64,000 nt of DNA from the NCBI GenBank assembly GCA_937915675.1, contig CALGID010000001.1, positions 23,504-87,503 on the forward strand, read 5' to 3'. How positions within the stretch are numbered: position 1 is the first letter of the stretch; every line of letters begins with the position of its first letter. Both the position numbers and the translations under genes were made by a program. Shown here piece after piece: positions 30,101-64,000 of the stretch. The notes beneath the pieces are model-generated. The model had not been told where the DNA came from. It was given only the letters and a program-made list of their open reading frames with translations, and did no database searches. Origin of the DNA: an uncultured Anaerolineaceae bacterium (lineage in GTDB: Bacteria > Chloroflexota > Anaerolineae > Anaerolineales > Anaerolineaceae).

Positions 30101-30330
30101 TCAACCTCCGGCAAGTGCCCTTGGGTTCGAGTTTATTTCCATTAATGCCGGATGGGACCCGCTATTGGATGCCTTTCTGGGTCAATGACCTGGGGGCCTA
30201 TCTGTTAAACAAACCTTTGGGTGTGATGCTGCTGGCCCCGTATGGGAAGGCAGGCGTGGGGCAGGCTTATTTCGTCCCGATCAAAGTGACTGGCTACCCA
30301 ATCCAATACATGCCAGTGATTAGCAAGTAG
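27112..30330 (+). CDS. Secreted subtilisin-like serine protease (S8) with a PA domain
   Basis: Signal peptide MKFFKLLAFILIIAMLTSPVAAQ. Triad contexts VAVIDTGID, NGHGTHVAST, GTSMAAPHVAG. PA insert FQGKVALILRGTCTFETK. Ends in QYMPVISK. Confidence 0.9.
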   Translation: MKFFKLLAFILIIAMLTSPVAAQSSFPPAEDLPPKELPIRPVPEEFKAAFREGMSIEEFIQNFKGPIPRALWPYTDLPLTVIVELDDEPLVPRLKALAAECEDLADVQKRHPELTNAVKLQQDLLLDRIARTNTSFARMVHEADFSRYSLVLNGYRMSVPASQIASLEKVPGVKRVSIAREYLPNLAYSVPLIKADQVWSMIDGTTGYTGKGVTVAVIDTGIDYTHMMFGTTGNPALYANNDPTVIENGSFPTFKVVGGIDLAGTNYNASNRTDPAVYTPMPDPDPLDENGHGTHVASTVAGLNAGWGTGVAPDVELVAIKIFGANGSTNLVIDGIERAMDPNADGFINDKVDIANLSVGSAWGVADPDDPEMQAVENASAAGVFMAISAGNEGDNSYIAGAPSVSDSGISVASTATGQSALPWVSFNSPTGDTLKVHYMPTANTISNRVGGDLVYAGTVVTDGNARLCDAGKLTSPDAFQGKVALILRGTCTFETKLNNAQAAGAIFALVFDAASKDRMTMAVGDATLPAGFITATEAGLLRSLAPVPVLVGTPGDAEYIATEAAVNTISDFSSRGPRGYDSKLKPEISAPGGGIFAAMMGSGNKGVTMSGTSMAAPHVAGVAALVKEAHPNWTVEQIKAALMNTAAPFTAEPVDIARQGAGHVDAFAAVSTDVVAIGDPKLVSLSWGLVEMGPGMFESTKQIHLRNFGTAAATYAIGFEFSRSDAPGLGFSFGVGDLVVPPNGGMTSRDITLSIDPSLLPPYKYYGYGLEQVLLPNEFSGFLTLTENTTGQVLRIPWMVVVRPYEVVSLLPDTPAAEIDYRVDGEKIVNRDPYADNYAGALETATVYMTSPNDPMFKDAAEVRYVGFDYLESIGINVVNFAMWGPVHSPQPYFDEIDLLVDVDRDGEVDYTFFNFNLQNLGYSDDANLWWLAVVDAKAGTVDYAGDWANIYTDFNSGWQQWFLELDLYGIDDTATVLVASFDGLGQAKVVGQADINLRQVPLGSSLFPLMPDGTRYWMPFWVNDLGAYLLNKPLGVMLLAPYGKAGVGQAYFVPIKVTGYPIQYMPVISK

Positions 30331-30349
30331 TTCCTAAGATTCTTGCATG

Positions 30350-30384
30350 GCAGGGCTGAGCAAACTCAGCCCTGCTTTTGTATT
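30350..30384 (+). terminator. Rho-independent terminator
   Basis: GCAGGGCTGAG-CAAA-CTCAGCCCTGC followed by TTTTGTATT. Confidence 0.8.
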
Positions 30385-30546
30385 GCTGGAATAGGGAAAC
30401 CTGCAATGGATGCTCTGGGTATGCTTATCCTGGCTGACGCACCGCCTTGCAGCACCCAGTTGCTTTATACACCCCGGGCAATGCCCCTCGCATCGGCTAT
30501 CCCGGATGGGTATACTTGCAAATCATGCCCCATAAAAAGGAAAACC

Positions 30547-31536
30547 ATGCTCTTTATTGACAACGAAAACCAACACGACGCCCGCGTCAACCTCGCCATC
30601 GAAGAATACATCATCCGCAATATTGCCCCCCAGGAGGAGATCCTCTTCTTCTACATCAACGGGCCTTCCATCATCATCGGCCGCAACCAAAACACGATCG
30701 AAGAGATCAACGTGGACCACGTGGAGGCAAACGGCATCACGGTCGTGCGGCGCCTATCCGGCGGAGGAGCGGTCTATCACGATCTGGGCAACCTGAATTT
30801 CAGCTTCATTGCCCCCAATTCAGTGGGCAATTTCCATAACTTCCGCAAATTTACCCAACCCGTAATCGATGTCCTGCAAGCCATGGGCGTGCCAGCCGAA
30901 CTCTCCGGCCGCAATGACATTTTGGCCGATGGCCGCAAGATCAGCGGAAATGCCCAGTACGTCAGCGGACCGCGCATGGTCAGCCACGGCACCCTGCTCT
31001 GGGATACTGACCTGAGCGTGGTGGGGGAGAGCCTGCGCGTCAAGCAGGCCAAAATTGAAAGCAAGGGCATCAAGAGCGTGCGCAGCCGGGTGGCCAACAT
31101 CACTGAATTCCTGCCCGAACCGCACATGGACATCATGGCCTTTCGGCAGAAGATCATCGATGGTGTTTTTGCCGGCGGTGAATTGCGCCAGTACCAGCTC
31201 ACCGCGGATGACTGGAAAGGCATCATGGCCCTCTCCAAAAGCCGCTACCAAACCTGGGATTGGAATTACGGCCGCTCGCCGGCCTTTAACCTCAAGCGCG
31301 AAACCCGTTACCCGGGCGGCGGCATCGAGGCTTTGCTTGAAGTGGAAAAAGGCAGGGTCCAGGGCCTGAAGTTTTACGGCGACTTTTTCGGTCAGCGCGA
31401 TGTAGCCGAACTGGAGCAAAAGCTGCTGGGCTGCCGCTACGAGCCGGAAGCGCTGCGGGCTTGCCTGGGCGGCGTGGAAATTGGGAATTACTTCGTGAAC
31501 TTCGGCCTGGACGAACTTATCAGCCTGCTTTATTGA
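30547..31536 (+). CDS. lplA: Lipoate-protein ligase A
   Basis: Start at ATG 30547 (MLFIDNENQHDARVNLAIEEYI). GRNQN and RRLSGGGAVYHD motifs typical of LplA. The N-terminal extension in the ORF track has no homolog-like sequence. Confidence 0.85.
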   Translation: MLFIDNENQHDARVNLAIEEYIIRNIAPQEEILFFYINGPSIIIGRNQNTIEEINVDHVEANGITVVRRLSGGGAVYHDLGNLNFSFIAPNSVGNFHNFRKFTQPVIDVLQAMGVPAELSGRNDILADGRKISGNAQYVSGPRMVSHGTLLWDTDLSVVGESLRVKQAKIESKGIKSVRSRVANITEFLPEPHMDIMAFRQKIIDGVFAGGELRQYQLTADDWKGIMALSKSRYQTWDWNYGRSPAFNLKRETRYPGGGIEALLEVEKGRVQGLKFYGDFFGQRDVAELEQKLLGCRYEPEALRACLGGVEIGNYFVNFGLDELISLLY

Positions 31537-31543
31537 GCGCACC

Positions 31544-31596
31544 TTATCGTATTACGATAATTATATATTGACAAACGATAAATTATCATTTATACT
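31544..31596 (+). promoter_or_regulatory. Sigma-70-like promoter (TTGACA-17-TATACT) flanked and overlapped by palindromic operators
   Basis: -35 TTGACA at 31568..31573, 17-nt spacer, -10 TATACT at 31591..31596. Perfect 17-bp palindrome TTATCGTA-T-TACGATAA at 31544..31560. Related ACGATAA-A-TTATCAT at 31575..31589, inside the spacer. GGAGGTG Shine-Dalgarno before ATG 31618. Confidence 0.6.
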
Positions 31597-31617
31597 TCGG
31601 GTATTGACGGAGGTGAA

Positions 31618-32088
31618 ATGAATCGTTTGCGCACAATTATCATGCAAGTGGGGGTGGGCTTGGGGGTCATGATCCTGCTCTACCTGATGGCTTTCAGCCT
31701 TGAGTATTCAGTTGCCTATGCCCAGAACTACCCGGAGCTCGCCCACATGCGCGGCCCAGTAGTTTTTCTGGTCATTTGCGCGCTGGCAGCCGGCACCGCC
31801 ATCCTGGTACTGGGGTTCCTGCTCCTGGAGCGCGTCCGGCGGAACATCGCCTTCGCGCCTCAAACAGTAAAGCTGCTGCGGGCGATCGCCTGGATTTCCT
31901 TTGGCGCGGTTCTGCCGCTGCTCTTGCTTGGCGTTTACACCGAGGCCAACGTGGCTTCTTCCATTACCAACCTCTATGTTTATGGCCTGATGGCCCTCGC
32001 GTTCATGCTGGGCAACCTCTTTATGCTTCTGGCAGCCTTGTTCCAGAACGCGGTGAGCTACAAGCAGGAAGTAGACCTCACGGTGTAG
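31618..32088 (+). CDS. DUF2975-like membrane protein
   Basis: 156 aa with four hydrophobic helices. Immediately followed (2-nt gap) by a YozG-type HTH gene, the usual DUF2975 partner. Confidence 0.6.
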   Translation: MNRLRTIIMQVGVGLGVMILLYLMAFSLEYSVAYAQNYPELAHMRGPVVFLVICALAAGTAILVLGFLLLERVRRNIAFAPQTVKLLRAIAWISFGAVLPLLLLGVYTEANVASSITNLYVYGLMALAFMLGNLFMLLAALFQNAVSYKQEVDLTV

Positions 32089-32089
32089 C

Positions 32090-32308
32090 ATGGCGATCAT
32101 CGTGAACCTGGATGTAGTGCTCGCTCAACGCAAAATGTCGCTCACAGAGCTCTCTGAACGGGTGGGTATCACCCTGGCCAATCTTTCCAACCTCAAAACG
32201 GGGAAGGCCCAGGCAGTGCGTTTCAGCACCCTGGATGCCATCTGCAAAGCCCTGGATTGCCAGCCTGGGGAAATTTTGGAGTACCGGCCTGAAACCTGCC
32301 GTTCTTAA
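32090..32308 (+). CDS. XRE/YozG-type small HTH transcriptional regulator
   Basis: 72 aa. MAIIVNLDVVLAQRKMSLTELSERVGITLANLSNLKTGKAQAVRFSTLDAICKALDCQPGEILEY matches the COG3655-type layout. Confidence 0.8.
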   Translation: MAIIVNLDVVLAQRKMSLTELSERVGITLANLSNLKTGKAQAVRFSTLDAICKALDCQPGEILEYRPETCRS

Positions 32309-33348
32309 CGGCTTGAACTTGCCTGATCGTTCAGATCGCCCGATTCCCGGCCCGGCCCATCATCTGGCGATCCTGGAGGCAGGGGCGCCCGCAGCTTTTG
32401 AGCGGCGGCACGCTTGCTCTCCTCGGAACGCCGGTCGTAACGCCGGGTCGTGTCGGTGGAGGCATGCCCGGCAATCGCGCTCACCGTTAACACGTCCACT
32501 TCGGCGTCCAGCAAATGAGTGATGGCCGTACGCCGCAGGTCGTGCGGGCTGAAGGCCTCCAGGCCGGCCTGCAGCGCGCGGCGGCCAAGCAGGTAGTAGA
32601 TGGCCTGCGGGCTCAGCCGGCGCAATACGATTTTCCCGCCCTTGCTCACCCGGCAAAACAGCGGGCCCAGTCGCCGGCCGCGCAAATCCAGCCAGCTCTG
32701 CAAACTCAATAGCGCGGAAGGCGAAAGATACACGTACCGCCGCTTGCTCCCCTTGCCCTGAACGCGCAGGCGGGCTTCCTCCACGGAAAGGTCCGCCAGG
32801 TTCAGGTCCACAACTTCCTGGCGGCGTAAGGCGCCAACATAAAGCGTTGAGATTAGGGCTGCATCGCGCACGCCCAGGTTGGGGTTGCCTTCGTCCGCCA
32901 GGCAAGCCGCCACCAGGGCTTGCAGTTCATCTTCCTTCAAAGCCCTTCCGCGCGGAAGGGCTTCATTGCGCAGGGAGCGCACCGCGGCCGCCTGGTAGTA
33001 GCTGTTGTGGTCGCTGTAAAGCCCCAGGCGGTAGGCTTCTTCCAGCACCCGGCGCAACGCAACCAGGTGCTTGTTCACCGAGGATTTGGCGTAGCCAATA
33101 TCCACCATGTAAGCTGCCAGGCTGGAGGTCTGTTCGTAGCGCAGGTTCTGCCAGGCGAATTGCAGCGGGTCGTCCAATTTGCCTTCAGAAAAAATCCCCG
33201 CCAGGTTGGCCAGTGCCGTGGCCTGCGTGCGCCTGCCGCTGGGGGAGAGCGTGTTCAGGTAAGCTTCGGCCGGGGAAGGCTGCCCGGCTTCTGCCCAAAC
33301 CAGCTGGGCAGTCAGGGGGGTAGGGTGGGGTTTAGCGCTTGCAGGCAT
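32305..33348 (-). CDS. Tyrosine site-specific recombinase/integrase
   Basis: Catalytic signature regions GALRRQEV, HDLRRTAITHLL and GHASTDTTRRY. An N-terminal SAM-like domain. An unusual Pro/Ser/Gly-rich C-terminal extension. Confidence 0.88.
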   Translation of the reverse strand: MPASAKPHPTPLTAQLVWAEAGQPSPAEAYLNTLSPSGRRTQATALANLAGIFSEGKLDDPLQFAWQNLRYEQTSSLAAYMVDIGYAKSSVNKHLVALRRVLEEAYRLGLYSDHNSYYQAAAVRSLRNEALPRGRALKEDELQALVAACLADEGNPNLGVRDAALISTLYVGALRRQEVVDLNLADLSVEEARLRVQGKGSKRRYVYLSPSALLSLQSWLDLRGRRLGPLFCRVSKGGKIVLRRLSPQAIYYLLGRRALQAGLEAFSPHDLRRTAITHLLDAEVDVLTVSAIAGHASTDTTRRYDRRSEESKRAAAQKLRAPLPPGSPDDGPGRESGDLNDQASSSR

Positions 33349-33351
33349 ACC

Positions 33352-33370
33352 GTATTCTCATAAGTAATTA
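33352..33370 (+). repeat. 19-bp exact direct repeat, copy 1 (GTATTCTCATAAGTAATTA), 4 nt from the integrase start codon
   Basis: Identical 19-mer found again at 34034..34052. Confidence 0.9.
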
Positions 33371-33447
33371 TAAATGCACCTGCCCCTTAGTGTTCCGGAA
33401 AACCGGTGGGGAGTAAAATTGTCGTCAAAAGAATACCGGAGGGGATA

Positions 33448-33831
33448 ATGATCGATTTCAGCAATAAAGTTTTATTCAAATTAAAGCCCGTAGACAATCG
33501 CTCTTTTTGGAATATGATTGCGCCGCTCTTCCTGCCAGGTGAGACGCTGCTCGCCTCGTTTCAGGCCTTGCGCGATGGCGTGGTCTTTACCAATAAGCGT
33601 ATTATTACCATCAACGTGCAGGGCATCACCGGGGCCAAAAAGGATTTCACCACATTGCCGTATTCCAAGATCCAGGCTTTCTCAGTAGAAACTGCCGGCA
33701 TTCTGGATAACGATAGCGAGCTGGACCTTTGGTTCGCCAACCTTGGCCGCGTCCGCCTGGAATTTACCCGCGGGACGGACGTAGCTGGAATCTGCCGCAC
33801 GATCAGTGAATTTACCCTGCAGTCAGCGTAA
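33448..33831 (+). CDS. Bacterial PH-domain (YokE-like) protein
   Basis: Start at ATG 33448 after GGAGGGG. FTNKRIITINVQGITGAKKDFTTLPYSKIQAFSVETAG is typical of bacterial PH (bPH) domains. Confidence 0.65.
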   Translation: MIDFSNKVLFKLKPVDNRSFWNMIAPLFLPGETLLASFQALRDGVVFTNKRIITINVQGITGAKKDFTTLPYSKIQAFSVETAGILDNDSELDLWFANLGRVRLEFTRGTDVAGICRTISEFTLQSA

Positions 33832-34033
33832 AACTCCCCCTGGCCTGGGGCAAAAGTGCGGCCTTAAATTAACCTGAGCCATCCTGCGCGCTCATTCTGA
33901 CCCTCCGCAAGCCAAGAGGAGTTGAGCGGAAGAATTGATAGCGTGTTTCAGCTTCAATCTTTGCCTCAGTGGGGCTTCATGAAGCTACAATTGCCTATGC
34001 GCAAAAATAATCACCTATGACTATCGAGAATAT

Positions 34034-34052
34034 GTATTCTCATAAGTAATTA
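34034..34052 (+). repeat. 19-bp exact direct repeat, copy 2
   Basis: GTATTCTCATAAGTAATTA. Here it is preceded by GAGAATA, forming the inverted repeat GAGAATA-TG-TATTCTC (34026..34041). Confidence 0.9.
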
Positions 34053-34084
34053 GCTGGGTCCTTAAAACCCCTGACCCCCTGCCC

Positions 34085-34116
34085 AAAAGAAAAGCGTGGA
34101 AGAAGGTCTTCCACGC
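34085..34116 (-). terminator. Rho-independent terminator of hcp
   Basis: On the minus strand: GCGTGGAAG-ACCTT-CTTCCACGC followed by TTTTCTTTTGGG, 23 nt after the hcp stop. Confidence 0.8.
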
Positions 34117-34138
34117 TCCTTTGTCTAAAATCTTGGGG

Positions 34139-35815
34139 TTACGCGCCAGCCATCATTGCCGCCACGTCGGCTTCAGCCTCCTGGGTGGGCATGAGATCAT
34201 AGGCCTGTACGATGGTCGCGGCCACATTCGGCGAAAGGAAGGCCGGCAGCGTGGGGCCAAGCCGGATCTTCTTGACGCCCAGGGAAAGCAGCGCCAGCAA
34301 GACGATCACAGCCTTTTGCTCGTACCAGGCGATATCGAATGAAAGCGGCAGCTCGTTCACGCTGCAGCCAAAGGCCTCGGCCAAAGCCTGCGCGATCACC
34401 ACCAGGCTGTAGCTGTCGTTGCACTGGCCGGCATCCAAAACCCGCGGAATCCCGCCAATCTCGCCCAGGCCCAGCTTGTTATAGCGGTACTTGGCACACC
34501 CGGCAGTGAGGATCACCGTGTCCTTGGGCAGGGCCAGGGCTACATCGGTGAAATACTGGCGTTCCTTATGCCGGCCGTCGCAGCCGCCCATCACCACAAA
34601 GCGCTTGATGGCGCCGCTCTTCACAGCTTCAATCACCTTATCGGCTACGGAAAGCACGGTCGCATGGGCATAACCGATCGGCAAGGTGCCGGTCTCAAGT
34701 TCATCCGGTCCGGGCAGGGTCTTCGCCATCTCGATTACAGCGCTAAAGTCCTTATGGCCGCCTTCGGGCCGATCCGCGATGTGCGGAACACCGGGGTAAC
34801 CGGTCATGCCGGTGGTAAAGATGCGTTCGCGGTAGGAATCCTTCAGCGGGATGATGCAGTTGGTGGTCATGAGGATGGGGCCATTAAAGCTGCCAAACTC
34901 TTCGCCCTGGTGCCACCAGGAACCGCCGTAGTTCCCCACCAGGTGGGGGTATTTCTTCAGCTCGGGGTAGGCATTCGTGGGCAGCATCTCGCCGTGGGTG
35001 TACACGTTCACGCCGGTACCTTCGGTCTGCTGCAGCAGTTCTTCCAGGTCCGGAAGGTCGTGCCCGCTCACCAGAATGCCCGGGCCGGGGCGCACGCCAA
35101 TATTTACATTGGTGGGCTCGGGGTTGCCGTAGCGTTCAGTGTTGGATTTATCCAGCAGGGCCATGGCTTTTACGCCAAACTCGCCGGTTTTCTGCACCCA
35201 ATCCAAAAGCTGGCTTACGTTCAGGTCCTGGGTAGTGGCGTCCAGCGCTTCCTGCATAAAGCCCAGGATGCTGGAATCCCGCCCCCCCACCAGGTAAGCG
35301 TGGTCCGTATACGCGGCCATGCCCTTCAGGCCGATGACGATCAATTGGCGCAGGGAGCGCAGGTCGGGGTCTTCATTCGGGTCGTGCGTGATGCCCACGG
35401 TAACGGCCTTCGTGAGCAGAGTGTCCATTTCATAATTCTCGGGATGCCATGCAGCCCAATCCGGGCCGGAGCCGGAGCAGTTGCTCTTGTGCAGCTCGTT
35501 GCAGCGCGCCTGGGCGTCCACGTGCAGGGCATCGCGGCGTTCGATGGCTTCTTTGATCAGCTCGACGAAGCGCTCTTCGTCGAAGTTGGCATTGGTGATC
35601 GTGGCAAAGAGGGCTTTGGCCACAAAAAGGTCGGTTTCAGGATGCTCCACACCCATATTGCGCCCGCGGCTGCCCCAGAATGAAATCCCTTTCAGCAGAT
35701 AAATCAAAAGATCCTGGAGGTTGGCAACGTCGGCAACTTTGCCGCACATACCGCGCCGGGTGCAACCCTGGTTCTTCATGGTTTCCTGGCATTGGTAACA
35801 GAACATATCGGTCAT
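34139..35815 (-). CDS. hcp: Hybrid-cluster protein / hydroxylamine reductase
   Basis: N-terminal MFCYQCQET...CTRRGMCGK cysteine motif; 558 aa, the canonical length and layout. Confidence 0.92.
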
Positions 35816-36156
35816 AGACTGTCTCCTTGGTAGTTTTGCATTATTCTAAACGAAGTTTGTGTTTTTGTGGATTATTAATACCAAATTTAGTGTAATTAAG
35901 TTGCATCCATCGAATTAGTAGTTACGCGCAGTTTCTTGGTCTCCGCTTCGCCGTTAATGCCGCTGGCTGAGGGTGATTATTGCTCTCCTCTAACGCCACC
36001 AACTCCAAAAATATCACCTGTATCAAAGCGCCGCGCCTTCACTGGAAGGGATGCAGAGACATAGCAGCCAAAGCTTTTCACTGGATTTGACTGGGGTACT
36101 TTCAATCTGCTATCCTTTTTTCCTATCGGTCGAGGAATGGATGAAAGGAGCCTCGG

Positions 36157-37149
36157 ATGAAAACTTTTCTTGCTACTACCGGCAACGGCATCGCCCGGGC
36201 CGAACCCCAGGATGAGCACACCTGGAAAGTATCCCACCTGCTTGCCGGCCAACGGGTCTTCTGCCTGGCGGCCGACCCCCACGAACAAGGCGCCATTTTC
36301 GCCGGCACGGAAAGCAGCGGTGTGCTGCGCTCCGCCGATGGCGGCAAAACCTGGCTGCCCGCGGGCCTGGCGGACCAAAACGTCAAGGCCATCCAGGTCA
36401 GCCCCATCCTGCCCGGCACGGTCTACGCTGGCACCAAGCCCGCCATGATCTTCGTCTCGCGCGATCACGGCCAAAATTGGCAGGAGCTGCCTGCCTTTCG
36501 CCAGATCCCTTCCCGGCGCTTTTGGTTCTCGCCGGCAGAAAAGCCCCACCATGCCTACATCCAGGGGATCGCCCTCTCACCAACGGACGAAAATCTGATC
36601 CTGGCTGGAATCGAAGCCGGGGCGGTCGTGCGCAGCAGCGATGGCGGCCAAACCTGGGAAGACCACCGCAAGGGCGCCCTGCGGGACTGTCACAGCATCA
36701 CATTCCATCATTCTCTGGGCAACTGGGCCTATGAAGGCGGCGGCACTGGTGCAGGCAATGCCTTCAGCCAGGACGGGGGCGAAACCTGGACGCAAAACCG
36801 GGCTGAAAAGCGCCTGACCTACGGCTGGGCCTGCGCTGCCGACCCCTTGGATCCCCGTATCTTCTACTTTTCGGTTTCCCCCTCGCCGATGAAGGCCCAT
36901 AGCCAGGACGACGCGCGCGCTTACATCTTCCGTAGGGATGCCAGCGGTAATTGGGTGAAACTCGGCGGCGGTCTGCCCCAACCGCTTAAGCACATGCCCT
37001 ACGCCCTGCTTACCGATCCCGCCGCTCCCGGCCACCTCTACGCGGGGCTGAGCAATGGAGCTCTGTGGCATACCCCTGACCATGGAAACACCTGGCGGCA
37101 GCTGCCCCTCAACCTGGGGATCATCCATCGGGTCATGATCATGCTCTAA
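36157..37149 (+). CDS. BNR/Asp-box repeat beta-propeller protein (Ycf48/sialidase-like fold), no signal peptide
   Basis: Five Asp-box motifs: SADGGKTW, SRDHGQNW, SSDGGQTW, SQDGGETW, TPDHGNTW. AAAGGAG Shine-Dalgarno. Confidence 0.75.
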   Translation: MKTFLATTGNGIARAEPQDEHTWKVSHLLAGQRVFCLAADPHEQGAIFAGTESSGVLRSADGGKTWLPAGLADQNVKAIQVSPILPGTVYAGTKPAMIFVSRDHGQNWQELPAFRQIPSRRFWFSPAEKPHHAYIQGIALSPTDENLILAGIEAGAVVRSSDGGQTWEDHRKGALRDCHSITFHHSLGNWAYEGGGTGAGNAFSQDGGETWTQNRAEKRLTYGWACAADPLDPRIFYFSVSPSPMKAHSQDDARAYIFRRDASGNWVKLGGGLPQPLKHMPYALLTDPAAPGHLYAGLSNGALWHTPDHGNTWRQLPLNLGIIHRVMIML

Positions 37150-37182
37150 GGCAAGGCATCCCACCGGTCAAACCCTGGTATC

Positions 37183-38141
37183 GTTGTAGGGGTCGAGCCT
37201 ATAGACAGTCGTAGGGGTCGACCACTTGAGTCGACCCACAGCGATAGGCATCGGTACCGTTGTAGGGGTCGGGCAATAGGCCCGACCCACCCAATCACCC
37301 TCATCCAGCAGTGCCCTTAATGCCTAGTTGATCGTCGTAGGGGATCGGCCACTTGTGTCGACCCACGGCGATAGGCATCCCACCGGTACCGTTGTAGGGT
37401 CGGGCCTACCGCCCGACCCGCATGGGTGAACCTTCCTATTATTTCCCGAGCTCCAGACGATCAATGTAGGGGTCGACCACTTGTGTCGACCCGCGGTGGA
37501 GGGCCTCCCATCGGTACCGTTGTAGGGTCGGGCCTACCGCCCGACCCGCATAGGTGAACCTTCCTATTTTTCCCCGAGCTCCAGACGATCAATGTGAGGA
37601 TCGACCACTTGTGTCGACCCGCGGGAATGGGCCTCCCATCGGTAACGTTGTAGGGGTCGGGCCTACTGCCCGACCCGCATGGGTGAACCTTCCTATTTTT
37701 CCCCGAGCTCCAGACGATCAATGTGGGGATCGACCACTTGTGTCGACCCACGGCGATAGGCCTCCCACCAGTACCGTTGTTGGGGTCGGGCCTACAGCCC
37801 GACCCGCTAAATCACGCCCATCAAGCGGTGCCCTTATTGCCTAGTTGATAGTCGTAGGGGTCGACCACTTGTGTCGACCCACAGTGATAGGCCACCCGTC
37901 TCGCAGTTGTTGGGGTCGAGCCTATTGCCCGACCCGCATGGGTGAACCTTCCTATTATTTCCCGAACTCCAGACGATCAATGTGGGGATCGACCACTTGT
38001 GTCGACCCACGGCGACAGGCCTCCCACCAGTACCGTTGTTGGGGTCGGACCTACTGCCCGACCCGCTAAATCGCGCTCATCCAGCGGTGCCCTTAATGCC
38101 CAGTTGATAGTCGTAGGGGTCGACCACTTGTGTCGACCCCC
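37183..38141. repeat. Mosaic (BIME-like) array of two alternating hairpin repeats with two linker types
   Basis: Eight copies of hairpin A (GTAGGGGTCGAC-CACTTGT-GTCGACCC) alternate with eight copies of hairpin B (GTAGGGTCGGGC-CTACN-GCCCGACCC). Period is about 120-150 bp. The linkers are themselves conserved. Confidence 0.9.
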
Positions 38142-38173
38142 ATGGGTAATCCTTTTCCCAAAATAAGTACGCC

Positions 38174-54268: not shown

Positions 54269-54283
54269 ACAGAAAAGGTTCTC

Positions 54284-55511: not shown

Positions 55512-55638
55512 GCACTTTTTGATTGATTTCTTAACTCGTTCGGTTTATTACTGCGACCATATTTAACGTGTTATCGGCAAGGGGCCTGCTGGCGGGTTGA
55601 TATGCTTCAACTCGCCGCAGCCAGAACCGATGAAGGCC

Positions 55639-57068
55639 TTACCTCCTGATCAGCGGCATGTAAGCCGGATAAAACTGCCTGGCCACCATCACCGCCTGCA
55701 ACTTATCCACTGCGCTGTTATCCAGCCGGTTATACGCCACGGCAATGCGTCCATCCGGGTAGGTGGCAATACTGCTGTAGGTACCCTTGAGGATGTCATG
55801 GGTGGCATCCTTCCAACCATAATCCACCTCCGCGCAGAACCAGGTGCGGTTGCCCGCGAAGAGCGGCCCGCAGTTTTCCCTGCCTACCGCCAGCGCCGGC
55901 CGCATCATCATCAGGCTGTTATTCGTAACGCCTCCCCCCCAAACCGAATAAGTTTGAAAAGTAATGACCTCGTAGTTGTTTTTGTCCACCACCAGGTCGA
56001 TGGTGTTGTAAATACTGTTACTGTTTACACCATCACTAAGCTCCTCACAGGTAAACGCCGAGTTCCCCACGCAGTTACCCCCCGGTCCTGAATACCAGAT
56101 ATGGCGCAGTTTATTATTGGCCAAACCAGCAGTTGTATATATCACCGAAAAGCGATCCTTCGCGTTCTGGCGCGCGTGCACGGCCAGGCTGCTGGTATCG
56201 TTGCTGATCACTTCCAAAGTGGTGCATCCCCAAGCCGAATCCGAGGCACAAGGGGTGGCCGTGCCGATGGGATGCTGCGCCGCGCGGATGCTGGGGTGGT
56301 CCGAATCGTTGTATACAATCTGGGTACACCCTCATACGAAATCTCCATATCCATGTTGGTACCAAAATTTGTATCATTTCCGTAAGCAACGGCGTGATAT
56401 TCAAAGGACTGATCCGGGCCTAACCACCCTTTTCCCGGGCCGAGATAAGGCAAGGCAATGACCGTCCGGCGGCCATCGTCCAAAACCCAATGGAAAGCAA
56501 TCGTAGGGTAACCGCTCGTGGGGTCGTACTTGAGCACCACCCGGGCCTCCCCGATGGTGATATTTTTGGTGGTTTGCGATTTCAGCACCGTAATGATATT
56601 CCATGCCGGGTAAGGGTCTAAGATGGCGATATCTTTCCAGGCATATTTAATGGCATTATTGGTGATATCCACATAGGCGATGCCAATGCGCGTGTAACTC
56701 AGCAAGGGGAGGGTGCTGTTGAACACCCGCACAATATCCATCGAGGCCTGGTAGCCCACATTGCCCAGGTAATCCACCGTGCTGCACTGGAAGTTGTGGT
56801 TATTGCCGCAGTTGCCGGCACCGGGTTCCACCTCGTAGGCCAGCTTGAGGTCCGCATTGTTGGTATCGTGATAGGCTACGTAAAGGCGGGCAGTATAAGG
56901 GTCATACTTGGCGGTCACATCGCGGGTAAAAAAGAGCTGGGGTGTCGAATCAACAACAACCTTTTCCCAGGGCAGCGGCGGGCCTGCCGGCGCGGCGGCA
57001 TAGGCAGGAAGGCTTCCGAAGCCCAATGCCAGGATGAGGATGGCAATCAGCAGTATCTTGCGGTTCAT
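55639..57068 (-). pseudogene. Secreted Cys-rich repeat protein, paralog B, split by a frameshift near 56320..56335
   Basis: ORFs 56208..57098 and 55639..56217 overlap in different frames. My translation shows the downstream frame is open from 56331 (GCTQIVYNDSDHPSIRAAQHPIGTATPCASDSAWGCTTLEVISND...) and is homologous to paralog A. Signal peptide MNRKILLIAILILALGFGSLPAYA follows AAGGAG (start 57068). Confidence 0.65.
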
Positions 57069-57257
57069 TCTTGCTCCTTTGATCTCAAGATCACTCATTT
57101 AGTGTCTGAATCACATGGTCTGTCAGTCATCTTTCATTAAGGTCACGCACATCTGCCCCGCCGTCTGGCCCGGGATTTACTAGCAGGCGGCGTGTACCTG
57201 CCTCACTCTAGCGGAGGGCAGCCGGGGCAGCAGCAGCTGCCCTCCACGCAAAAAGCG

Positions 57258-58685
57258 CTAACGGCGGATGAGGGGCAGGAAATTTCCAAAACCAGTTCGC
57301 AGTACATACAAGCCCTGAAAGGGAACCGTACCGGTATCCATGCGAGTGTAAGCCAGTGCCAGACCCCCATTGGGATAAACTGCTAACGAAGAAAAGGCGC
57401 CGAACGAAGGGGAGGATACTGCTGTCTCCGGGGCGCTGTCCAGAGAGGTGCAAACCCAGGTGAACTTTCCCAGGAACGGATTGCAGTTAGGGGTCTCACC
57501 AGGAACTGCCGCGAGCGGCCGGGCCAGCATCAGTTCGGAGGTATTCGCGCCGGTCAAGCGCCGGTAAGAAATCATGGGAAAACCTTTCAGGTCGTTTTCC
57601 ATGTCCGTGCGCGCCCAAACCGGGCCCAGCCCATCCTGGATGGTGGCCAGCCAGTAATTGGGGTTCGTAGCGCCGTTGCCGCCGCCATCCCCGACCAATG
57701 TCAGCAGTTTCAAGGCGCCAGCATCCGGGTCAAGGGCAGCGATGCGCCGGGTGTCCGCACCGCTCTTCGCCGCGTGGATGCTCAGGGCATCCGCCGTCAT
57801 CGTGTGCACCACATTGCACATCCATTTCACGGTTTCAGAACAGCCCGTATTGGTGCTGCCGTGAACATACACGGCCAGCTTCACGGCAGGCGGAACGGGA
57901 GAACCTTGAACCACCGCGGCAAAATAGGCGATCTCGATATTCCCCGTGGCGTTGATATCCATATCCATCGGATAGCCGTAACCCGCCGAGGCAGCCGAGT
58001 CGATCAGCCGGCATTCGTACTTTAAGTTCGTTCCGCAGGCAGCAGTATGGTCGATGGGGTCCCCATCCACGTGTTCGATCACCCAGGCAACTTAGCCTTT
58101 TTCCGCTCCGGTCGTTGGCTCACTGATTTGGGCTGCAAAAACCGCCAGATGGCTCACCGGCATGTACTTTAAACTCAAAGACCGGCCCTCCCCTGCAGGT
58201 GCCCAACTGCTGAAATCTCCTGCTGTATCGGTGGTCCAAGTCGGGTTAGGGGTCAGGGCGCTGAATGTTTTTTGCGTGTACATCAGGCTCTGAGTATTAT
58301 TATCAATGTAGGCCACCCCTACTTGGGTATAGCTGATCTGCCCGATGAAATAGTTCTGAATATCAAGCGCCACGCCGCCAATATTCGAGCCCTGAAAAAG
58401 CACCTCACAATTAAAATGATTGTTCCGGCTGCAATTGCCCGTGCCCGGCTGGGTCTCAACAGCCAATTCCACATTATGGGAGGAAGGGTCGTAATACGCC
58501 AGGTGGAGCAAGCCGTTTTGCGGATTCACTTTGGCAGAAACATACAAACCATATTCCATCGAGCCGGCGTGAATGTACTCCTTTTGCAGGAACATCGCTG
58601 GCACGGGGCTCTGGGCAGAGGCAAAAGCAGTACTGCTTAGAAGGCTGAGAGTGAGCAACAAAAGTAATAATATTTTGCGTTGCAT
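57258..58685 (-). pseudogene. Secreted Cys-rich repeat protein, paralog A, interrupted by an in-frame TAA at 58092..58094
   Basis: ORFs 58092..58685 and 57258..58082 are in the same frame, separated only by TAA plus 3 sense codons (GAEKG*VAWVIEH). Paralog B is continuous across this point. Signal peptide MQRKILLLLLLTLSLLSSTAFA. Confidence 0.65.
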
Positions 58686-58927
58686 GAGGCTTCCTTTCGT
58701 GAGCGATGCACCATTCAGATGATGCGAAAACCTGCCCCGCCTTCTGGAACATCTGAATCATACGCCCCAGGCTTCGGCGGATATAGTAGAATTTTCAGTA
58801 CATTCAGTAATAAAATGAAAAATATTGAAGCAGGAGCGGCTGGTTTTCTACGAAAAGAGCGCCTTGTCAGCACATCGGGGCAAGTGCAGGCTTTGATCAG
58901 GAATTTGATTATTAAGGGGGCGGGGCC

Positions 58928-59713
58928 ATGGATCATCCGATAAATGAACTGGAGAAAGCTGCCAGAGCAGACCAAGAAGCGCAATTTCTAAGCGAGGGAG
59001 ACTTTCGCCGGATACTGGAAAACAGCCCGGGCCATTGCCTGGTTTACAACACCCGCGGCGATCTGATCTACCTCACCCCAGCCACACAGCGGCTCTTTCA
59101 TATTAAGGACCTCAGCCAGGTGTTGGGCCAGGTGAACGTGCTTAAGGACCCCAGCCTAAGCTACGCCGGCCTGGACATGCGCGGCATATTCCAACGGGCA
59201 ATGGCGCGTGAGCGCTTCAACCTCTATAATGTGCGCACCCCGGTCCGGGAAATCACGGAGCGCTTCGGCAGCGGCGAGCCGGAACGCCTCAGCGAGTTCA
59301 CTACTTTTTATGTCTTCCCGCTCTATGACCAGGCCGGCCAGGTCAGCCATGTGGTCACAATGATGATGCCCCAGCAGTTCTTCAAAGGCGACCCTCTTGC
59401 CCTGGCCTGCCGCGAATACCTGGAGGAGCATTGGCAGGAGCCCTTCGATAACCTGGCGCTGGCACGCAGGGTAGCCATGTCCCGCTCGCAGGTGAACAAG
59501 GTCTTCGAAAACGCCTTCGGCCTCACGCCATTTGCCTACTACCGGCGCAAGAAGATCGATCACCTCAAGGAAGCACTGCTTCAGCCTGGGGTATCGGTCA
59601 AGCAGGCCTACACCGCCTGCGGCCTCACCTATAACGGCAGCCTCGCCCGGGATTTTGCCAAAAGCACAGGCTACACCCCCAAAGCCTTCCAGTACCTTCA
59701 GCGCGATGCTTGA
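58928..59713 (+). CDS. AraC-family transcriptional regulator with an N-terminal PAS-like sensor domain
   Basis: PAS-like FRRILENSPGHCLVYNTRGDLIYLTPA. C-terminal AraC HTH (LARRVAMSRSQVNKVFENAFGLTPFAYYRR...ARDFAKSTGYTPKAF). Confidence 0.85.
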   Translation: MDHPINELEKAARADQEAQFLSEGDFRRILENSPGHCLVYNTRGDLIYLTPATQRLFHIKDLSQVLGQVNVLKDPSLSYAGLDMRGIFQRAMARERFNLYNVRTPVREITERFGSGEPERLSEFTTFYVFPLYDQAGQVSHVVTMMMPQQFFKGDPLALACREYLEEHWQEPFDNLALARRVAMSRSQVNKVFENAFGLTPFAYYRRKKIDHLKEALLQPGVSVKQAYTACGLTYNGSLARDFAKSTGYTPKAFQYLQRDA

Positions 59714-59762
59714 ACGAAACGCAATAGATCCTTGCGTATTACCCTATCCTAGGCCCGTGATC

Positions 59763-59793
59763 TAGGAGAGTCGAGCGAACGCCAGGCTCTCCC
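59763..59793. repeat. Third, diverged member of the GGAGAG...AGGCTCTCCCG hairpin family
   Basis: TAGGAGAGTCGAGCGAACGCCAGGCTCTCCCGG. Shares the AGGCTCTCCCG arm with the copies at 4142 and 4327. Confidence 0.4.
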
Positions 59794-59961
59794 GGGAACA
59801 AAACACTCAGGGATCAGTACGGGCATTATGCCTGACCCGTACGCGAGGGTCCTTGTAAACATCCTTTTCCAAGGAGCCCAATTAACCTCTTAGCGGTTTC
59901 CAACCCTTGGAAATAAGTCTCCAAACGCAAAATCCGTCCTGCGGCCTTCCCTGCAAACATC

Positions 59962-59996
59962 GCAAAATCACAAAGGCCGGGCGGTCTGCCCGGCCC
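59962..59996 (-). terminator. Rho-independent terminator of the tryptophanase-like gene
   Basis: On the minus strand: GGGCCGGGC-AGACC-GCCCGGCC followed by TTTGTGATTTTGCG. Confidence 0.75.
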
Positions 59997-60038
59997 ATGC
60001 AAATCTTCGGACCTTATTAACTCATTAATAGGAAGGGT

Positions 60039-61421
60039 CTAGCCTTCAATTTCCTCCAGCTTGGCCATAAAGTGCCGCAGCACCTCCGGCGCCCAAACCA
60101 CTCGCGTACCTTTCACCAGCTCTGGTTGGCGCATCAATTCGGCCGCTGCTTCGCCAATGTAATCCAGATGGCTGCGGGTGTAGACCCGCCGTGGAATGGC
60201 AAAGCGCACCAGCTCCAACGGCGCGAACTGCTGCAAGCCGGTCACCGGATCAGTATGTTCAAACATCAAAGAACCAATTTCAACCGTGCGGATGCCCCCA
60301 ACCAGATAAAGCGCGTTGGCCAGGCCAACCGCCGGGAATTGCTGGGGTGGAATATTGGGGAAGGCCTTGCCCGCGTCCACGTATACGGCATGTCCGCCGG
60401 TGGGTTTATAAACCGGCATCCCCGCCGCACTGAGCACCTCGCCCAGGTAACGCGTATGCGCCTCGCGGTAAGCCAGATAATCCTCTTCCACCACCTCGTT
60501 TAGCCCAATAGCCAGGGCATCCAGGTCGCGCCCAGCCAGGCCGCCGTAGGTCAGAAAACCCTCATGCACGATCAGGTTCGCCCCAATTCGGGCCTTAAGC
60601 GCTTCGTCCCTGAAGGCGATGAACCCGCCGATGTTCACCAACCCGTCCTTCTTGGCGCTCATCGTGCAGCCATCGGCATAGCTGAATTGCTCGCGCACGA
60701 TCTCGCGCACGGGCACATCCTTGTACTTCGGATCCCGCAGTTTGATGAACCAGGCGTTCTCGGCAAAGCGCGCGGCGTCGATGAAGAAGGGGATGCCGTG
60801 CCTGTGGTAGATCTCGGCCGTCCCGCGGATGTTGCCCATCGAAACCGGCTGGCCCGCGGCGCTGTTATTGGTGATCGTGAGCATCCCGAGGGGGATGTTC
60901 TCCACACCCGTCTCCCGGATGAAAGCCTCCAGCTTTTCAAGGTCCATATCGCCCTTAAACGGAGCCTCCAGGCTGGAATCTTCGGATTCGGCGATGGGCA
61001 GGTCCACCGGGTTCACGCCCAGCACCTGCAGGTTGCCCATCGTGGTATCGAAGTGGCGGTTGCTGGGCACGCTCTGGCCGGCTTTGACCAATGAACTGAA
61101 GAGCATTCCCTCGGCGGCGCGGCCCTGGTGAGTGGGCAGCACGTAGGGGAAACCCAGCACTTCCTGGATTGCCTGCTCAAAGCGGAACCAGCTCTTCGAG
61201 CCGGCATAGGCCTCGTCACCGCGCATGATGCCCGCCCACTGGGCATCGCTCATCGCGCCGGTGCCGCTATCCGTCAGCATGTCAATAAACACGTCCTCCG
61301 CTGGCACCATAAAAAGATTGAAATGCGCTGCCTTCAGGGCGGCTTCACGCTCGGCGCGCGTGGTCAGCTTAACTTTTTCCACTACCTTGATCCGAAATGG
61401 CTCGATGAACGGGATACTCAT
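60039..61421 (-). CDS. tnaA: Tryptophanase-like beta-eliminating lyase (PLP-dependent)
   Basis: EPFRIKVVEKVKLTTRAEREAAL, IDMLTDSGTGAMSDAQWAGIMRGDEAYAGS, ARFAENAWFIK, PLP-Lys motif SAKKD, and a C-terminal VLRHFMAKLEE. By recollection these are closer to E. coli TnaA (SAKKD, ARFAENAYFIK) than to tyrosine phenol-lyase (SGKKD). Confidence 0.75.
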   Translation of the reverse strand: MSIPFIEPFRIKVVEKVKLTTRAEREAALKAAHFNLFMVPAEDVFIDMLTDSGTGAMSDAQWAGIMRGDEAYAGSKSWFRFEQAIQEVLGFPYVLPTHQGRAAEGMLFSSLVKAGQSVPSNRHFDTTMGNLQVLGVNPVDLPIAESEDSSLEAPFKGDMDLEKLEAFIRETGVENIPLGMLTITNNSAAGQPVSMGNIRGTAEIYHRHGIPFFIDAARFAENAWFIKLRDPKYKDVPVREIVREQFSYADGCTMSAKKDGLVNIGGFIAFRDEALKARIGANLIVHEGFLTYGGLAGRDLDALAIGLNEVVEEDYLAYREAHTRYLGEVLSAAGMPVYKPTGGHAVYVDAGKAFPNIPPQQFPAVGLANALYLVGGIRTVEIGSLMFEHTDPVTGLQQFAPLELVRFAIPRRVYTRSHLDYIGEAAAELMRQPELVKGTRVVWAPEVLRHFMAKLEEIEG

Positions 61422-61444
61422 GCACTCTCCTTATGTGAATATGG

Positions 61445-62668
61445 TCAAAGGCCGGGCGCAGCAAAGGCTTTGCCGGCCAAAATTCCGCTCGCGAAGGCGA
61501 AGTGCAGGTTGTATCCGCCGCAGGGGCCGGCCACGTCCAGAACTTCACCCACCAAACTCAGTTCGGGCAGTTTGAGCGAGCGCATCGTTACCGGGTGCAC
61601 CTCGTTCACCGCCACGCCGCCCACCTTGACCTGCGAATTTTCAAAATTGCCTGCCCCGCTCACCTTGAAGCGCAGATCGCTCAGGCCCTTTACCAGGGCC
61701 ATCCCCTCACGCATATTCAGCTGCCCCACATGCTTGTGGGGCTGCAGCCCCGCCATCTGTAGAAGAACTGGCACGGCTTTAGGCGCAAAGAACATCGACA
61801 GCAAAGCGCCCAGGCTGCAGCGCGCGCTCATCAGGCCCTGCTCCAAACGCTTGCGCCTGGTGCCCAGCAAGTCCAGGCTAAGGCTGAGGGCTTGGCTGCC
61901 ATGCACCCCAACAAGGTGGCTCAGGTTCATCACACCCGGGCCATTAAACCCCTCAGCGATCACGATCAGGTTCCCCTCCGAGCTGCCGAGCAGCTCTTCC
62001 CCCGCGTAAATGGCAGTCCGGGCATCGAAGCGCTGGCCCTTAAGTGCGGCAAAAGCACCCAATTCAGCATAGATCGGGCCTAGCGCGGGCAAGGGCGGCC
62101 GGACAGTATGCCCCAGTTCCCGCAGCAGCGGAAAGAGCGCGCCGTCAGAACCCAGGCGCGGATAGGCCCGCCCGCCGCTGGCCAGCACCAGGTGGTCGCA
62201 AGCCGCGCTGGGGGCATCCGGGCCGTCCAAATGCAGTTTCCATCCTCCCCCACCCCGACTGCGTTCAAACCGCTTCACCCTTGTGGCTACGCGCAATATT
62301 ACGCCGGCATTACGCAGCTGTTCCTCTAAAATAGCCACCACGGCGCCAGCCGATTCAGAAAGCGGATACACCCAGCCATCTGGTGTTGCAAAACTGGGAA
62401 TGCCCCAGCCATCCAGGGTGGCCAGAAGCGCCTCCGGAGGCATCGCCTCCAGGGTCTGCGCCAACCAGCTTGGATCCGGGCAGGTATAAACCCCGGCGGA
62501 AACAGCGTGATTGCTCAGGTTGCAGCGGCCGCTGCCGGTCACCAGCAGTTTGCGCCCCAGGGCCTCTTTTTGCTCATAAAGGGTAACAGTTTCACCGCCG
62601 CGCGCGGCAGCCAGCGCGAAGGCCATGCCCGCTGGACCAGCCCCAATAACAGCGATCTTCATAGGCAT
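61445..62668 (-). CDS. HI0933/BaiN-like FAD-dependent oxidoreductase
   Basis: IAVIGAGPAGMAFALAAARGG...GRKLLVTGSGRCNLSN N-terminal signature of the HI0933 family; 407 aa. Confidence 0.8.
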   Translation of the reverse strand: MPMKIAVIGAGPAGMAFALAAARGGETVTLYEQKEALGRKLLVTGSGRCNLSNHAVSAGVYTCPDPSWLAQTLEAMPPEALLATLDGWGIPSFATPDGWVYPLSESAGAVVAILEEQLRNAGVILRVATRVKRFERSRGGGGWKLHLDGPDAPSAACDHLVLASGGRAYPRLGSDGALFPLLRELGHTVRPPLPALGPIYAELGAFAALKGQRFDARTAIYAGEELLGSSEGNLIVIAEGFNGPGVMNLSHLVGVHGSQALSLSLDLLGTRRKRLEQGLMSARCSLGALLSMFFAPKAVPVLLQMAGLQPHKHVGQLNMREGMALVKGLSDLRFKVSGAGNFENSQVKVGGVAVNEVHPVTMRSLKLPELSLVGEVLDVAGPCGGYNLHFAFASGILAGKAFAAPGL

Positions 62669-62873
62669 GATTATACCTTCACGCTAACAAAATCAAGCAA
62701 ATGTGCGCGTCCAGGCGAATAAAAGCCTTGAAAATTAATCTTCGTTAATTAGCGCGGAACAAGGCTCCAACTGCAAATTCTAATGGTCATGAATTACCAG
62801 AACAGGACGCCATTAAACCCCTCAGCAGGACCTATTGGGTGGAACCGCCGGCAAATTACCGCGCCTTTGCTCA

Positions 62874-62911
62874 TTAAAAAGAACAGGAGCCGGCATCAAT
62901 GCCAGCCCCTG
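62874..62911 (-). terminator. Rho-independent terminator candidate
   Basis: On the minus strand: CAGGGGCUGGCAU-UG-AUGCCGGCUCCUG (two G-U pairs) followed by TTCTTTTT. Confidence 0.6.
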
Positions 62912-62925
62912 CCCAAGAAAACTGC

Positions 62926-64000
62926 CTAGCGGGTGACGACAGGCAAGTAAATAGCCGGCAAGTCGTAAAAGACGATCGTCTCCCCCGACGTCCCATCAAA
63001 GCTGAAAAGCGATATGCTGGAACCTGCCTGCATCTGCTTGATCAGCTCATCCTTGATGGTCCACCCTCCAGCCACCACGGAAACAAAATCACTGCTCTGT
63101 GTGTACCAATTGACGTAAAGGCCATAGCTCAACCATTTGTTGGGCTCGATGGTGCCAGAAGCCTGGCCCAGTTTAAGGTCTACGCCGTCGATCTTAAGAT
63201 CCACCACCTGATGCGCTACCGTATGGAGCCCATCCGTAGCTGCCACGGTCTCTCCCGCTTGGATGTCCGTATCGCTCAATTTCTGGAAAGCATACCCGTA
63301 GGCATCCACCGGGATATTTCGCCCAATACCGCCAACCGTTACTGAGACCGCACTATTTTGTGGCCAGGAAAACAACTCCACGGCGTCTATTTGCGGATAA
63401 ATAGCCAGAAACGGCCAGGGAATCAACCAATTTACAACCGTGGCATTCCCATTGGCATCAAACTCTGCCACGGTTCCCCTGCTGCCTCCGGAAAGGAACA
63501 AAACCGGTGCGTATGTGATGCTCCAATTCCCGTTGGTGTCTGCGTTGAGGCCTGCATTCTGCTCGCTCGTCATATCCGATGCCCACAGTTCCAGCGGGGC
63601 GTTCGCTGCTGCAGTCCCCGAAACCGTGCCGGTCGATTGGTTCACACTGGTCACCTTCACAGTCAATACGGTATGCTCCGTTCCATAGGCGCCTTGCTGG
63701 ACGATCACCTTATCCCCTGGCACAAGGTCATGCCCCTTTGTTTCAACATGTGCAAAGCCCTGACGGTCAGCGTTAAAGTCCCAGGTTTTTAATCCGATGC
63801 TTAAAGTGCCGCTTTGGCTCGGTTCCAATTGCCTGATTTCCACAAAGTCAGCCAGTGGATAGGCCTTCACTGCTGGATAAGGCAGATACCAATAAAAAGA
63901 GCTTGCGTTCCCAGCCGCATCAGTCTGGATCGCAAAGCCCCAACTATTGGGGGCAATGTTCGTGATCCCGGCGAAGCTGTAACTCCAATTCCCCTCCGCG
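62926..64000 (-). CDS. Secreted/cell-surface protein of unknown function, C-terminal part; the gene continues beyond the right edge
   Basis: The ORF track begins at GTG 63870, but my translation of 63871..63999 in the same frame has no stop (AEGNWSYSFAGITNIAPNSWGFAIQTDAAGNASSFYWYLPYPAVK...). Beta-rich, Thr/Ser/Gly-rich composition. Ends in IYLPVVTR. Confidence 0.6.
   Translation of the reverse strand, partial: AEGNWSYSFAGITNIAPNSWGFAIQTDAAGNASSFYWYLPYPAVKAYPLADFVEIRQLEPSQSGTLSIGLKTWDFNADRQGFAHVETKGHDLVPGDKVIVQQGAYGTEHTVLTVKVTSVNQSTGTVSGTAAANAPLELWASDMTSEQNAGLNADTNGNWSITYAPVLFLSGGSRGTVAEFDANGNATVVNWLIPWPFLAIYPQIDAVELFSWPQNSAVSVTVGGIGRNIPVDAYGYAFQKLSDTDIQAGETVAATDGLHTVAHQVVDLKIDGVDLKLGQASGTIEPNKWLSYGLYVNWYTQSSDFVSVVAGGWTIKDELIKQMQAGSSISLFSFDGTSGETIVFYDLPAIYLPVVTR

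Follow-up and report, generated by a model that had tools for sequence, protein, structure and literature searches.

The 64,000-nucleotide stretch analyzed here (the window), from an uncultured Anaerolineaceae bacterium of the phylum Chloroflexota (contig CALGID010000001.1, positions 23,504 to 87,503), encodes four exported proteins with similar eight-residue C-terminal tails, and the question that this locus raises is whether their common tail is a sorting signal, and of what kind. The four tails are very probably instances of the YLP-box, a motif curated in NCBIfam and a known kind of element in Chloroflexota. The YLP-box has the consensus [VIL]-[YF]-[LM]-P-[LV]-[IV]-x-[RK], located at the very C-terminus or up to approximately four residues away from it, and is carried by many Sec-exported Chloroflexota proteins from Anaerolineae, Caldilineae, Thermoflexales, and Chloroflexia. 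Comparison of its carriers suggests that its function is probably the sorting or anchoring of exported proteins.

The original prediction held that four otherwise different proteins end with the same tail directly before the stop codon, and all coordinates and stop codons were borne out. On the forward strand, a subtilase (subtilase 2) ends in YMPVISK (30307..30327), a divergent YMP variant with a terminal K, followed by a TAG stop at 30328-30330. On the reverse strand, and with the stop directly after the tail in each case, paralog B ends in YMPLIRR (55642..55662; TAA), paralog A in FLPLIRR (57261..57281; TAG) and a 556-amino acid (aa) protein in the canonical YLP-box (I)YLPVVTR (62929..62949; TAG). 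The carriers are not all different from each other: paralogs A and B are homologous, so that the window has three independent carrier families instead of four. When a 1704-aa protein past the window end is counted, four unrelated carrier families lie within approximately 40 kb of the contig. In a six-frame translation of the whole 64 kb, the expression [FY][LM]P[LVF][IV].[RK] matches exactly four times and all four matches are terminal, which has a chance probability of approximately 5e-6 if a random match is assumed to be followed by a stop with a probability of 3/64. A relaxed form of the expression revealed no further tails on open reading frames (ORFs) of at least 80 aa in the window.

No similarity was detectable upstream of the tail among subtilase 2, the A/B family, the 556-aa protein, and the 1704-aa protein, on which basis one larger shared C-terminal domain was rejected. 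Pfam and NCBIfam scans of the full-length window proteins gave no known sorting domains, and no larger known C-terminal domain was found to be common to the four. None of the four window proteins matched PEP-CTERM, LPXTG, or similar models of NCBIfam, and the C-terminal domain of the type IX secretion system (T9SS; approximately 70–80 residues, TIGR04183/PF18962) was likewise without a match on the window proteins. Past the proline of the window tails only four residues follow before the protein ends, and there is no transmembrane helix.

The absence of PEP-CTERM- or LPXTG-type matches agrees with the earlier suggestion that the tail is unlike the named sorting domains, but the motif does already have a name in NCBIfam. 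The sequence IYLPVVTR passes the model NF053834.1 (“ultrashort_CTERM”) with 15.2–16.1 bits at a cutoff of 10, and falls below the cutoff of 15 of NF050076.1 (“sort_motif_YLP”) with 12.8–13.6 bits; NCBIfam gives both the description “YLP-box putative sorting motif-containing protein.” These models span 10–11 positions, and their matches run through to the final position of the model and the final residue of the protein; they very probably describe the same object as the window tails. They surfaced only in scans of short C-terminal pieces, not of full-length proteins. The YMP, FLP, HLP, and K-ending tails in general gave no reported match to the curated models, and the YMP, FLP, and K-ending tails are divergent variants outside what these models report. 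Since the models are silent on such variants, current annotation may undercount the carriers.

The distribution of the motif was assessed with the nucleotide pattern TAYCTGCCNCTGRTBNNNCGNTRA (Y-L-P-L-[IVM]-x-R-stop) across 185,579 species, each represented by a single genome; the fixed codons of this pattern skew the sample toward the leucine codon CTG and R-ending tails. At least 120 loci were found, with approximately 100 chance matches expected in the whole collection by our estimate, and 92 of the 120 listed are named Chloroflexota. These comprise Anaerolineae/Anaerolineales, Thermoflexales, Caldilineaceae, Litorilinea, Chloroflexaceae, Roseiflexus, Oscillochloris, Viridilinea, and Chloroploca. 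Among the loci listed, the ORFs that the match terminates in Chloroflexota are mostly long, from hundreds of codons to more than 2000. In most of the other 28 the match lies at the ends of ORFs of fewer than 60 codons and is due to chance. Exceptions among the 28 are two loci from metagenome-assembled genomes labeled “uncultured delta proteobacterium” (L041 and L023), with several genuine tails. L041 encodes three tandem proteins on the forward strand (204-818, 1086-2861, and 4315-5982) that end in LYLPLIVR, LYLPLILK, and LYLPLIER, respectively, and L023 has ORFs on the reverse strand (2-610 and 3481-5139 in reverse-complement coordinates) with the tails VYLPLMLR and LFLPLILKY. Either these bins are mislabeled or the motif is not confined to the Chloroflexota.

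The Chloroflexota loci from the scan, 657 kb in total, served as a test set in which the seeded sites were excluded from the match counts. Searching related genomes with the expression, as the original prediction had proposed, shows the same lock to the protein end: 14 of the 25 non-seed matches to the general motif are terminal (binomial p = 7e-13), and 5 further matches of the 25 end only 1–16 residues before the stop. At position -8, which the seed leaves unconstrained, 79 of 98 carriers have V, I, or L. Signal-peptide-like N-termini are present on 38 of 45 carriers and on 95 of 245 other ORFs (Fisher p = 9e-9), as scored by a crude hydrophobicity heuristic with a high background of 39%. 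The motif is thus not equally frequent in the two groups, and the enrichment on signal-peptide proteins that had been proposed as a check was observed. Synonymous codons vary at the tails, all three stops are used (TGA 6, TAG 4, TAA 4) and no common DNA follows downstream, from which it follows that the constraint acts on the peptide and not on the DNA.

The proteins that carry the tail are highly diverse. Together, 77 carriers match 79 Pfam families with no family in more than five carriers, including beta-helix, CarboxypepD_reg, peptidases of the families C25, M23, and S8, SdrD_B, Kelch, Calx-beta, FG-GAP, and SBP_bac_5. The top NCBIfam matches among the 77 are NF050076 (36) and NF053834 (19), followed by the choice-of-anchor Q domain (9). 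Proline is enriched 1.5-fold over the 20 residues ahead of the tail, and proline-rich linkers precede many tails.

The best available argument for function, and the strongest functional evidence, comes from the exchange of C-terminal modules on homologous passengers, where the YLP-box fills a slot that is held elsewhere by established sorting signals. We took one PD40-propeller carrier (L090:912-2519) and compared the endings of its best 120 homologs. Among these, 33 have a YLP-like tail (including HLPLIL[KR]QG), 15 a PEP-CTERM-like ending and 4 a T9SS domain (PF18962), while 13 end in ...DGFExGD..W..., 4 in CFPIK..NG..ICL, and 4 in GMMLDGLPGM; the remaining 47 are other or truncated. In the C-terminal sequences listed, the endings come after a conserved ...ADQDTDxVxELY or a further C-terminal domain. 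Of five PEP-CTERM-like tails scored with TIGR02595, three (P0212, P0292, and P0313) are above the cutoff, one (P0230) is 0.1 bit below it and one (P0265) gave no match; the T9SS domain of P0263 scores 27.5 bits with TIGR04183. Where sources are named, the endings track lineage, with PEP-CTERM in Pirellulales, the DGFE ending in Xanthomonadales and Thermoanaerobaculia, and the YLP tail in Chloroflexota and Ardenticatenaceae. The exchange with PEP-CTERM and T9SS suggests that the YLP-box is a sorting or anchoring signal.

The comparison of passengers also brought up other recurrent endings. The pattern ...[FW].DGFE.GD(T/L)..W(S/D)...P, which is without an NCBIfam match, replaces the YLP tail in two unrelated passenger families: the PD40 propellers (including P0219, P0239, P0245, P0253, P0257, P0266, P0268, and P0319) and approximately 14 homologs of paralogs A and B (including P0094, P0105, P0136, P0145, P0147, and P0167). 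It could be another unnamed C-terminal tag. C[FV]P[IV]K..NG...[IF]C[LF] and GMMLDGLPGM are further recurrent endings.

Two protein families collected without the motif as seed show the same kind of tail. A C-terminal profile of paralogs A and B, searched against 1.84 billion representative proteins, identified 239 relatives (representatives at 50% identity), mostly exported proteins of approximately 470 aa with the repeat GNCG..W.C..IAYYD..LKYA and its conserved cysteines. The family emerged from this exhaustive profile search; a word-indexed search with paralog A gave one match only. It is without a Pfam or NCBIfam model. A tail of the form hydrophobic-[LMV]-P-hydrophobic-hydrophobic-x-[RK] is present in 84 of 122 aligned relatives, at the exact end in 55 and followed by a few, mostly 1–3, polar residues (NH, DP, NGP, or SG) in 29. 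In alignment A4 of this family the proline is conserved in 90% or more, and K is about as frequent as R at the basic position. Structural modeling of the C-terminal 274 aa of paralog A with AlphaFold2 (alignment of 63 sequences) predicts propeller blades with a mean predicted local distance difference test (pLDDT) score of 83.7, and Foldseek matches this model to propeller lectins and sialidases. The last approximately 12 residues (263-274) are predicted as coil with the pLDDT dropping from 71 to 51, which leaves the idea that the tail is the closing “velcro” strand of the propeller unsupported.

The second family consists of PorU-like C25 peptidases from Chloroflexaceae, Roseiflexaceae, and Kouleothrix (loci L013, L025, L039, L064, and L113 and sequences P0322-P0441). 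Almost all end in ...LLGDPLTxARVxPAxR[VS][YF]LPxxxR, in which the tail lies approximately 10 residues past the conserved LLGDPLT motif; it is absent in a few orthologs. Counted from the end of the protein, Y/F occurs in 78%, L in 69%, P in 80%, and R/K in 85% of the 120 sequences.

The YLP-box shares features with several known systems. Like the tripartite signals and their enzymes (PEP-CTERM/exosortase, LPXTG/sortase, GlyGly-CTERM/rhombosortase, and MYXO-CTERM/myxosortase), it is C-terminal, modular, lineage-specific, and found on unrelated Sec-exported proteins. With PEP-CTERM it has in common the slot on PD40 propeller homologs, and the YLP carriers include choice-of-anchor Q proteins. It differs from the tripartite signals in its length of 8 residues compared to approximately 25–35, in having no transmembrane helix and one or two basic residues only, and in that no cognate membrane enzyme is known for it or was found among the neighbors in 92 loci. 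The T9SS domain (TIGR04183/PF18962; PorU sortase) is interchangeable with the YLP-box on the PD40 passenger family. PorU itself carries a T9SS domain, much as the PorU-like C25 peptidases of Chloroflexia end in YLP-type tails. Ultrashort C-terminal signals with a receptor or enzyme are the KDEL/HDEL sequence, the peroxisomal targeting signal 1 (PTS1; SKL), and the C-terminal lysine of Braun lipoprotein (Lpp), which L,D-transpeptidases link to peptidoglycan. In these, as in the YLP-box, a few extreme C-terminal residues suffice and no membrane helix is involved, but KDEL and PTS1 are eukaryotic and serve other compartments. In contrast to Braun lipoprotein, the YLP-box has Arg more commonly than Lys as the last residue in most carrier sets and tolerates trailing residues. 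Because Arg predominates, an Lpp-like link through a terminal lysine side chain is unlikely; a PDZ-type reading of the C-terminus is also unlikely, as the last residue is basic and extensions are tolerated. The T9SS domain, unlike the YLP-box, is a folded beta-sandwich of approximately 70–80 residues, recognized by a translocon of the outer membrane. Chloroflexota are considered monoderm (PMC13319060).

Taken together, the original prediction, in which a short C-terminal tag would serve the sorting or processing of secreted proteins, is supported by the lock to the protein end, the enrichment on exported proteins, modularity, conservation at the peptide level, and anchor swapping. We favor the interpretation, with some reservation, that the YLP-box, which lacks a transmembrane helix, is a tag for sorting or retention and would be read after Sec export. 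In such a mechanism the N-terminal signal peptide, which the intact carriers possess, would direct export, presumably by the Sec route. The last eight residues form a flexible appendage outside the passenger fold, as shown by the structure prediction, the proline-rich linkers, and the diversity of the carriers. Following translocation, a trans-acting envelope factor would recognize the near-terminal peptide, and this factor would then retain, attach, or hand over the protein within the multilayered envelope. The tail would stand in for a PEP-CTERM, LPXTG, or T9SS domain, minus the membrane-spanning helix. The fixed aromatic-L-P core and terminal basic residue argue for a specific reader over generic stickiness. 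By analogy with PorU, the PorU-like C25 family is a candidate for this reader, as a lead only. Filamentous Chloroflexota, considered monoderm, have a multilayered envelope of which the outermost layer surrounds the whole filament (PMC13319060). Proteins exported by these bacteria do have to be distributed among the layers. We raise the possibility, tentatively, that an undescribed sorting pathway could use the YLP-box as its substrate signal; a receptor or transpeptidase would then place proteins in the shared outer layers of the filaments.

Several points weigh against a sorting or retention tag. No reported match to the YLP models was obtained for the tails of subtilase 2, paralog A, and paralog B, possibly as a result of the HMMER filters. 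A literature search, which included the literal tail sequences, found no paper or experiment on the YLP-box; since no published paper or mechanism was found, its status as a known motif derives from the database entry. The enrichment on exported proteins depends on the crude heuristic described above. From one to five polar residues may trail the basic residue, so the determinant cannot be a free carboxylate on R/K alone; such tolerated extensions would fit either trimming or cleavage within the motif. Searches for a partner among the neighboring genes were negative: the largest cluster of non-carrier genes occurs in 3 of 92 loci (all-against-all BLAST of 437 ORFs), and no Pfam family is found in more than 2 of 111 immediate neighbors of carriers. 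Finally, the known prokaryotic sorting signals hold their substrate at the membrane by means of a transmembrane helix, which the YLP-box does not have.

Other explanations for a conserved tail were considered alongside this one. The tail could be a processing or turnover tag, either a protease or carboxypeptidase site or a degron that clears unexported or misfolded copies. Tail-specific protease signals and the ssrA tag show a comparable lock to the C-terminus, trimming could bring tails with 1–5 residues past R/K to one uniform end, and many carriers are peptidases (S8, C25, and M23) whose presence in the cytoplasm would do harm. The C-terminus also leaves the cytoplasm last. Most carriers, however, are non-enzymes, namely repeat or adhesin-like proteins, and the neighborhood searches linked no protease gene to them. 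Moreover, the slot on homologous passengers holds PEP-CTERM and T9SS sorting domains and no known degrons, and the choice-of-anchor Q domain co-occurs with the tail, which makes a turnover tag unlikely in our view. We give slightly less credence to a passive anchor, in which a hydrophobic peg with basic flanks would bind the membrane surface or anionic wall polymers without any reader. Its composition of six mostly hydrophobic residues and R/K, often with R, K, or Q at -9 and -10, would suit such a role, as would the negative outcome of the neighborhood searches for a partner gene. Yet proline at -5 and the aromatic residue at -7 keep a fixed spacing in the unseeded families, beyond generic hydrophobicity, and seven residues with a central proline would be too short for a bilayer span or an amphipathic helix. 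A peg of this type could be used by any bacterium, whereas the motif is restricted to one lineage.

An explanation at the level of translation or nucleic acid is highly improbable. A nascent-peptide arrest that couples release to export, or a DNA or RNA element at the ends of genes, would account for the fixed distance to the stop, and by comparison with known arrest peptides the conserved proline would lie inside the stretch held in the ribosomal exit tunnel. Arrest peptides normally reside in dedicated leader ORFs, though, and not in hundreds of large structural proteins, and many family members have 1–5 residues between motif and stop. A DNA or RNA element was rejected on the basis of the codon variation and the lack of a common downstream sequence, and the use of all three stops speaks against it as well. 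Chance, or inheritance within one larger homologous C-terminal domain, has already been refuted and retains next to no probability. Paralogs A and B are homologous over their full length and their tails may be of common descent, but all four window matches are terminal (p ~5e-6), the carrier families lack upstream similarity, the carriers at large span 79 Pfam families, and a second subtilase of the window with the same S8 and PA core has no tail.

The carriers in the window were characterized individually. Subtilase 2 (27112..30330, forward strand) is an exported peptidase of family S8, 1072 aa long, that also has a PA domain (Peptidase_S8 1.8e-56, PA 3e-13; Pfam) and the signal peptide MKFFKLLAFILIIAMLTSPVAAQS; an identical protein is present on contigs from JGI, NCBI, and ENA. 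The neighboring, tailless subtilase 1 (22007-26830) has a hydrophobic, signal-peptide-like N-terminus. At the other end, the 556-aa exported protein is represented in the window by its C-terminal 357 aa (62926..64000, reverse strand), as its N-terminus lies beyond the window end. Its full length and Sec-type signal peptide MKKIRFVISCIVLMSLVLLAGSPVKAQT were obtained from the locus L004 (8073-9743). On the same contig, past the high end of the window, this carrier is adjoined by the 1704-aa protein (L004 2258-7372), an exported He_PIG/beta-helix protein ending in LKLFLPAINR, a fifth tail with Ala at position -4.

The adjacent paralogs A and B, which are 26–31% identical and homologous over their whole length, are both disrupted in the window (reverse strand). 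Paralog B, of the beta-propeller family, is divided by a 1-bp deletion (context GGTGT-ACCC) into a C-terminal fragment of 192 aa (55639..56217) and an N-terminal fragment (56208..57098), with the frameshift near 56325/56326. The latter contains the signal peptide MNRKILLIAILILALGFGSLPAYAAAP, and its listed ORF start lies 10 codons upstream of this signal peptide. In paralog A, a premature TAA (58092-58094) separates a C-terminal fragment of 274 aa (57258..58082), with the predicted propeller blades, from an N-terminal fragment of 197 aa (58092..58685) with the signal peptide MQRKILLLLLLTLSLLSSTAFASAQS. As a consequence of the TAA in A and the deletion in B, the tail-bearing ORFs are severed from the parts that hold the signal peptides. 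Intact alleles of both are found in another assembly (L006): paralog B with 476 aa (7914-9344), and paralog A with 475 aa and TCA (Ser) where the window has TAA. A 92%-identical ortholog of paralog A ends in SFLPLISR. Split forms turn up repeatedly in several independent assemblies, with intact forms of 475 and 476 aa in others, and the disruption looks like real polymorphism or recent pseudogenization of neighboring surface-protein genes, not an assembly error. A Sec signal peptide, noted earlier for those carriers whose N-terminus lies in the window, is present in all intact forms (subtilase 2, both intact paralog alleles, and the 556-aa protein), but two of the four carriers are disrupted in the window itself.

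Genes for proteins with the tail are often adjacent, with two or three in tandem that are often unrelated in sequence (L075, L090, L018, L021, L043, L050, L085, L110, and L125). The tandem pattern is also seen here: paralogs A and B are neighbors, as are the genes for the 556-aa and 1704-aa proteins.

Wastewater sludge, hot springs, and sediments all contain abundant Chloroflexota. How proteins are placed in their unusual multilayered envelope is a largely obscure process. As the tail marks a large and diverse set of exported peptidases, adhesin-like repeat proteins, and propellers, it outlines a likely surface or extracellular proteome of these organisms. Well-studied prokaryotic C-terminal sorting signals all depend on a membrane helix, and an eight-residue tag without one would need a different reading mechanism; the window itself adds no decisive clue to this mechanism, which remains testable. 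Swaps on common passenger families provide a practical route to more unnamed C-terminal tags. If the YLP-box does serve an undescribed pathway, it would represent a new mechanistic class of prokaryotic sorting signal, and the FLP, YMP, and HLP variants, together with sister modules such as ...DGFExGD..W..., would hint at more ultrashort tags.

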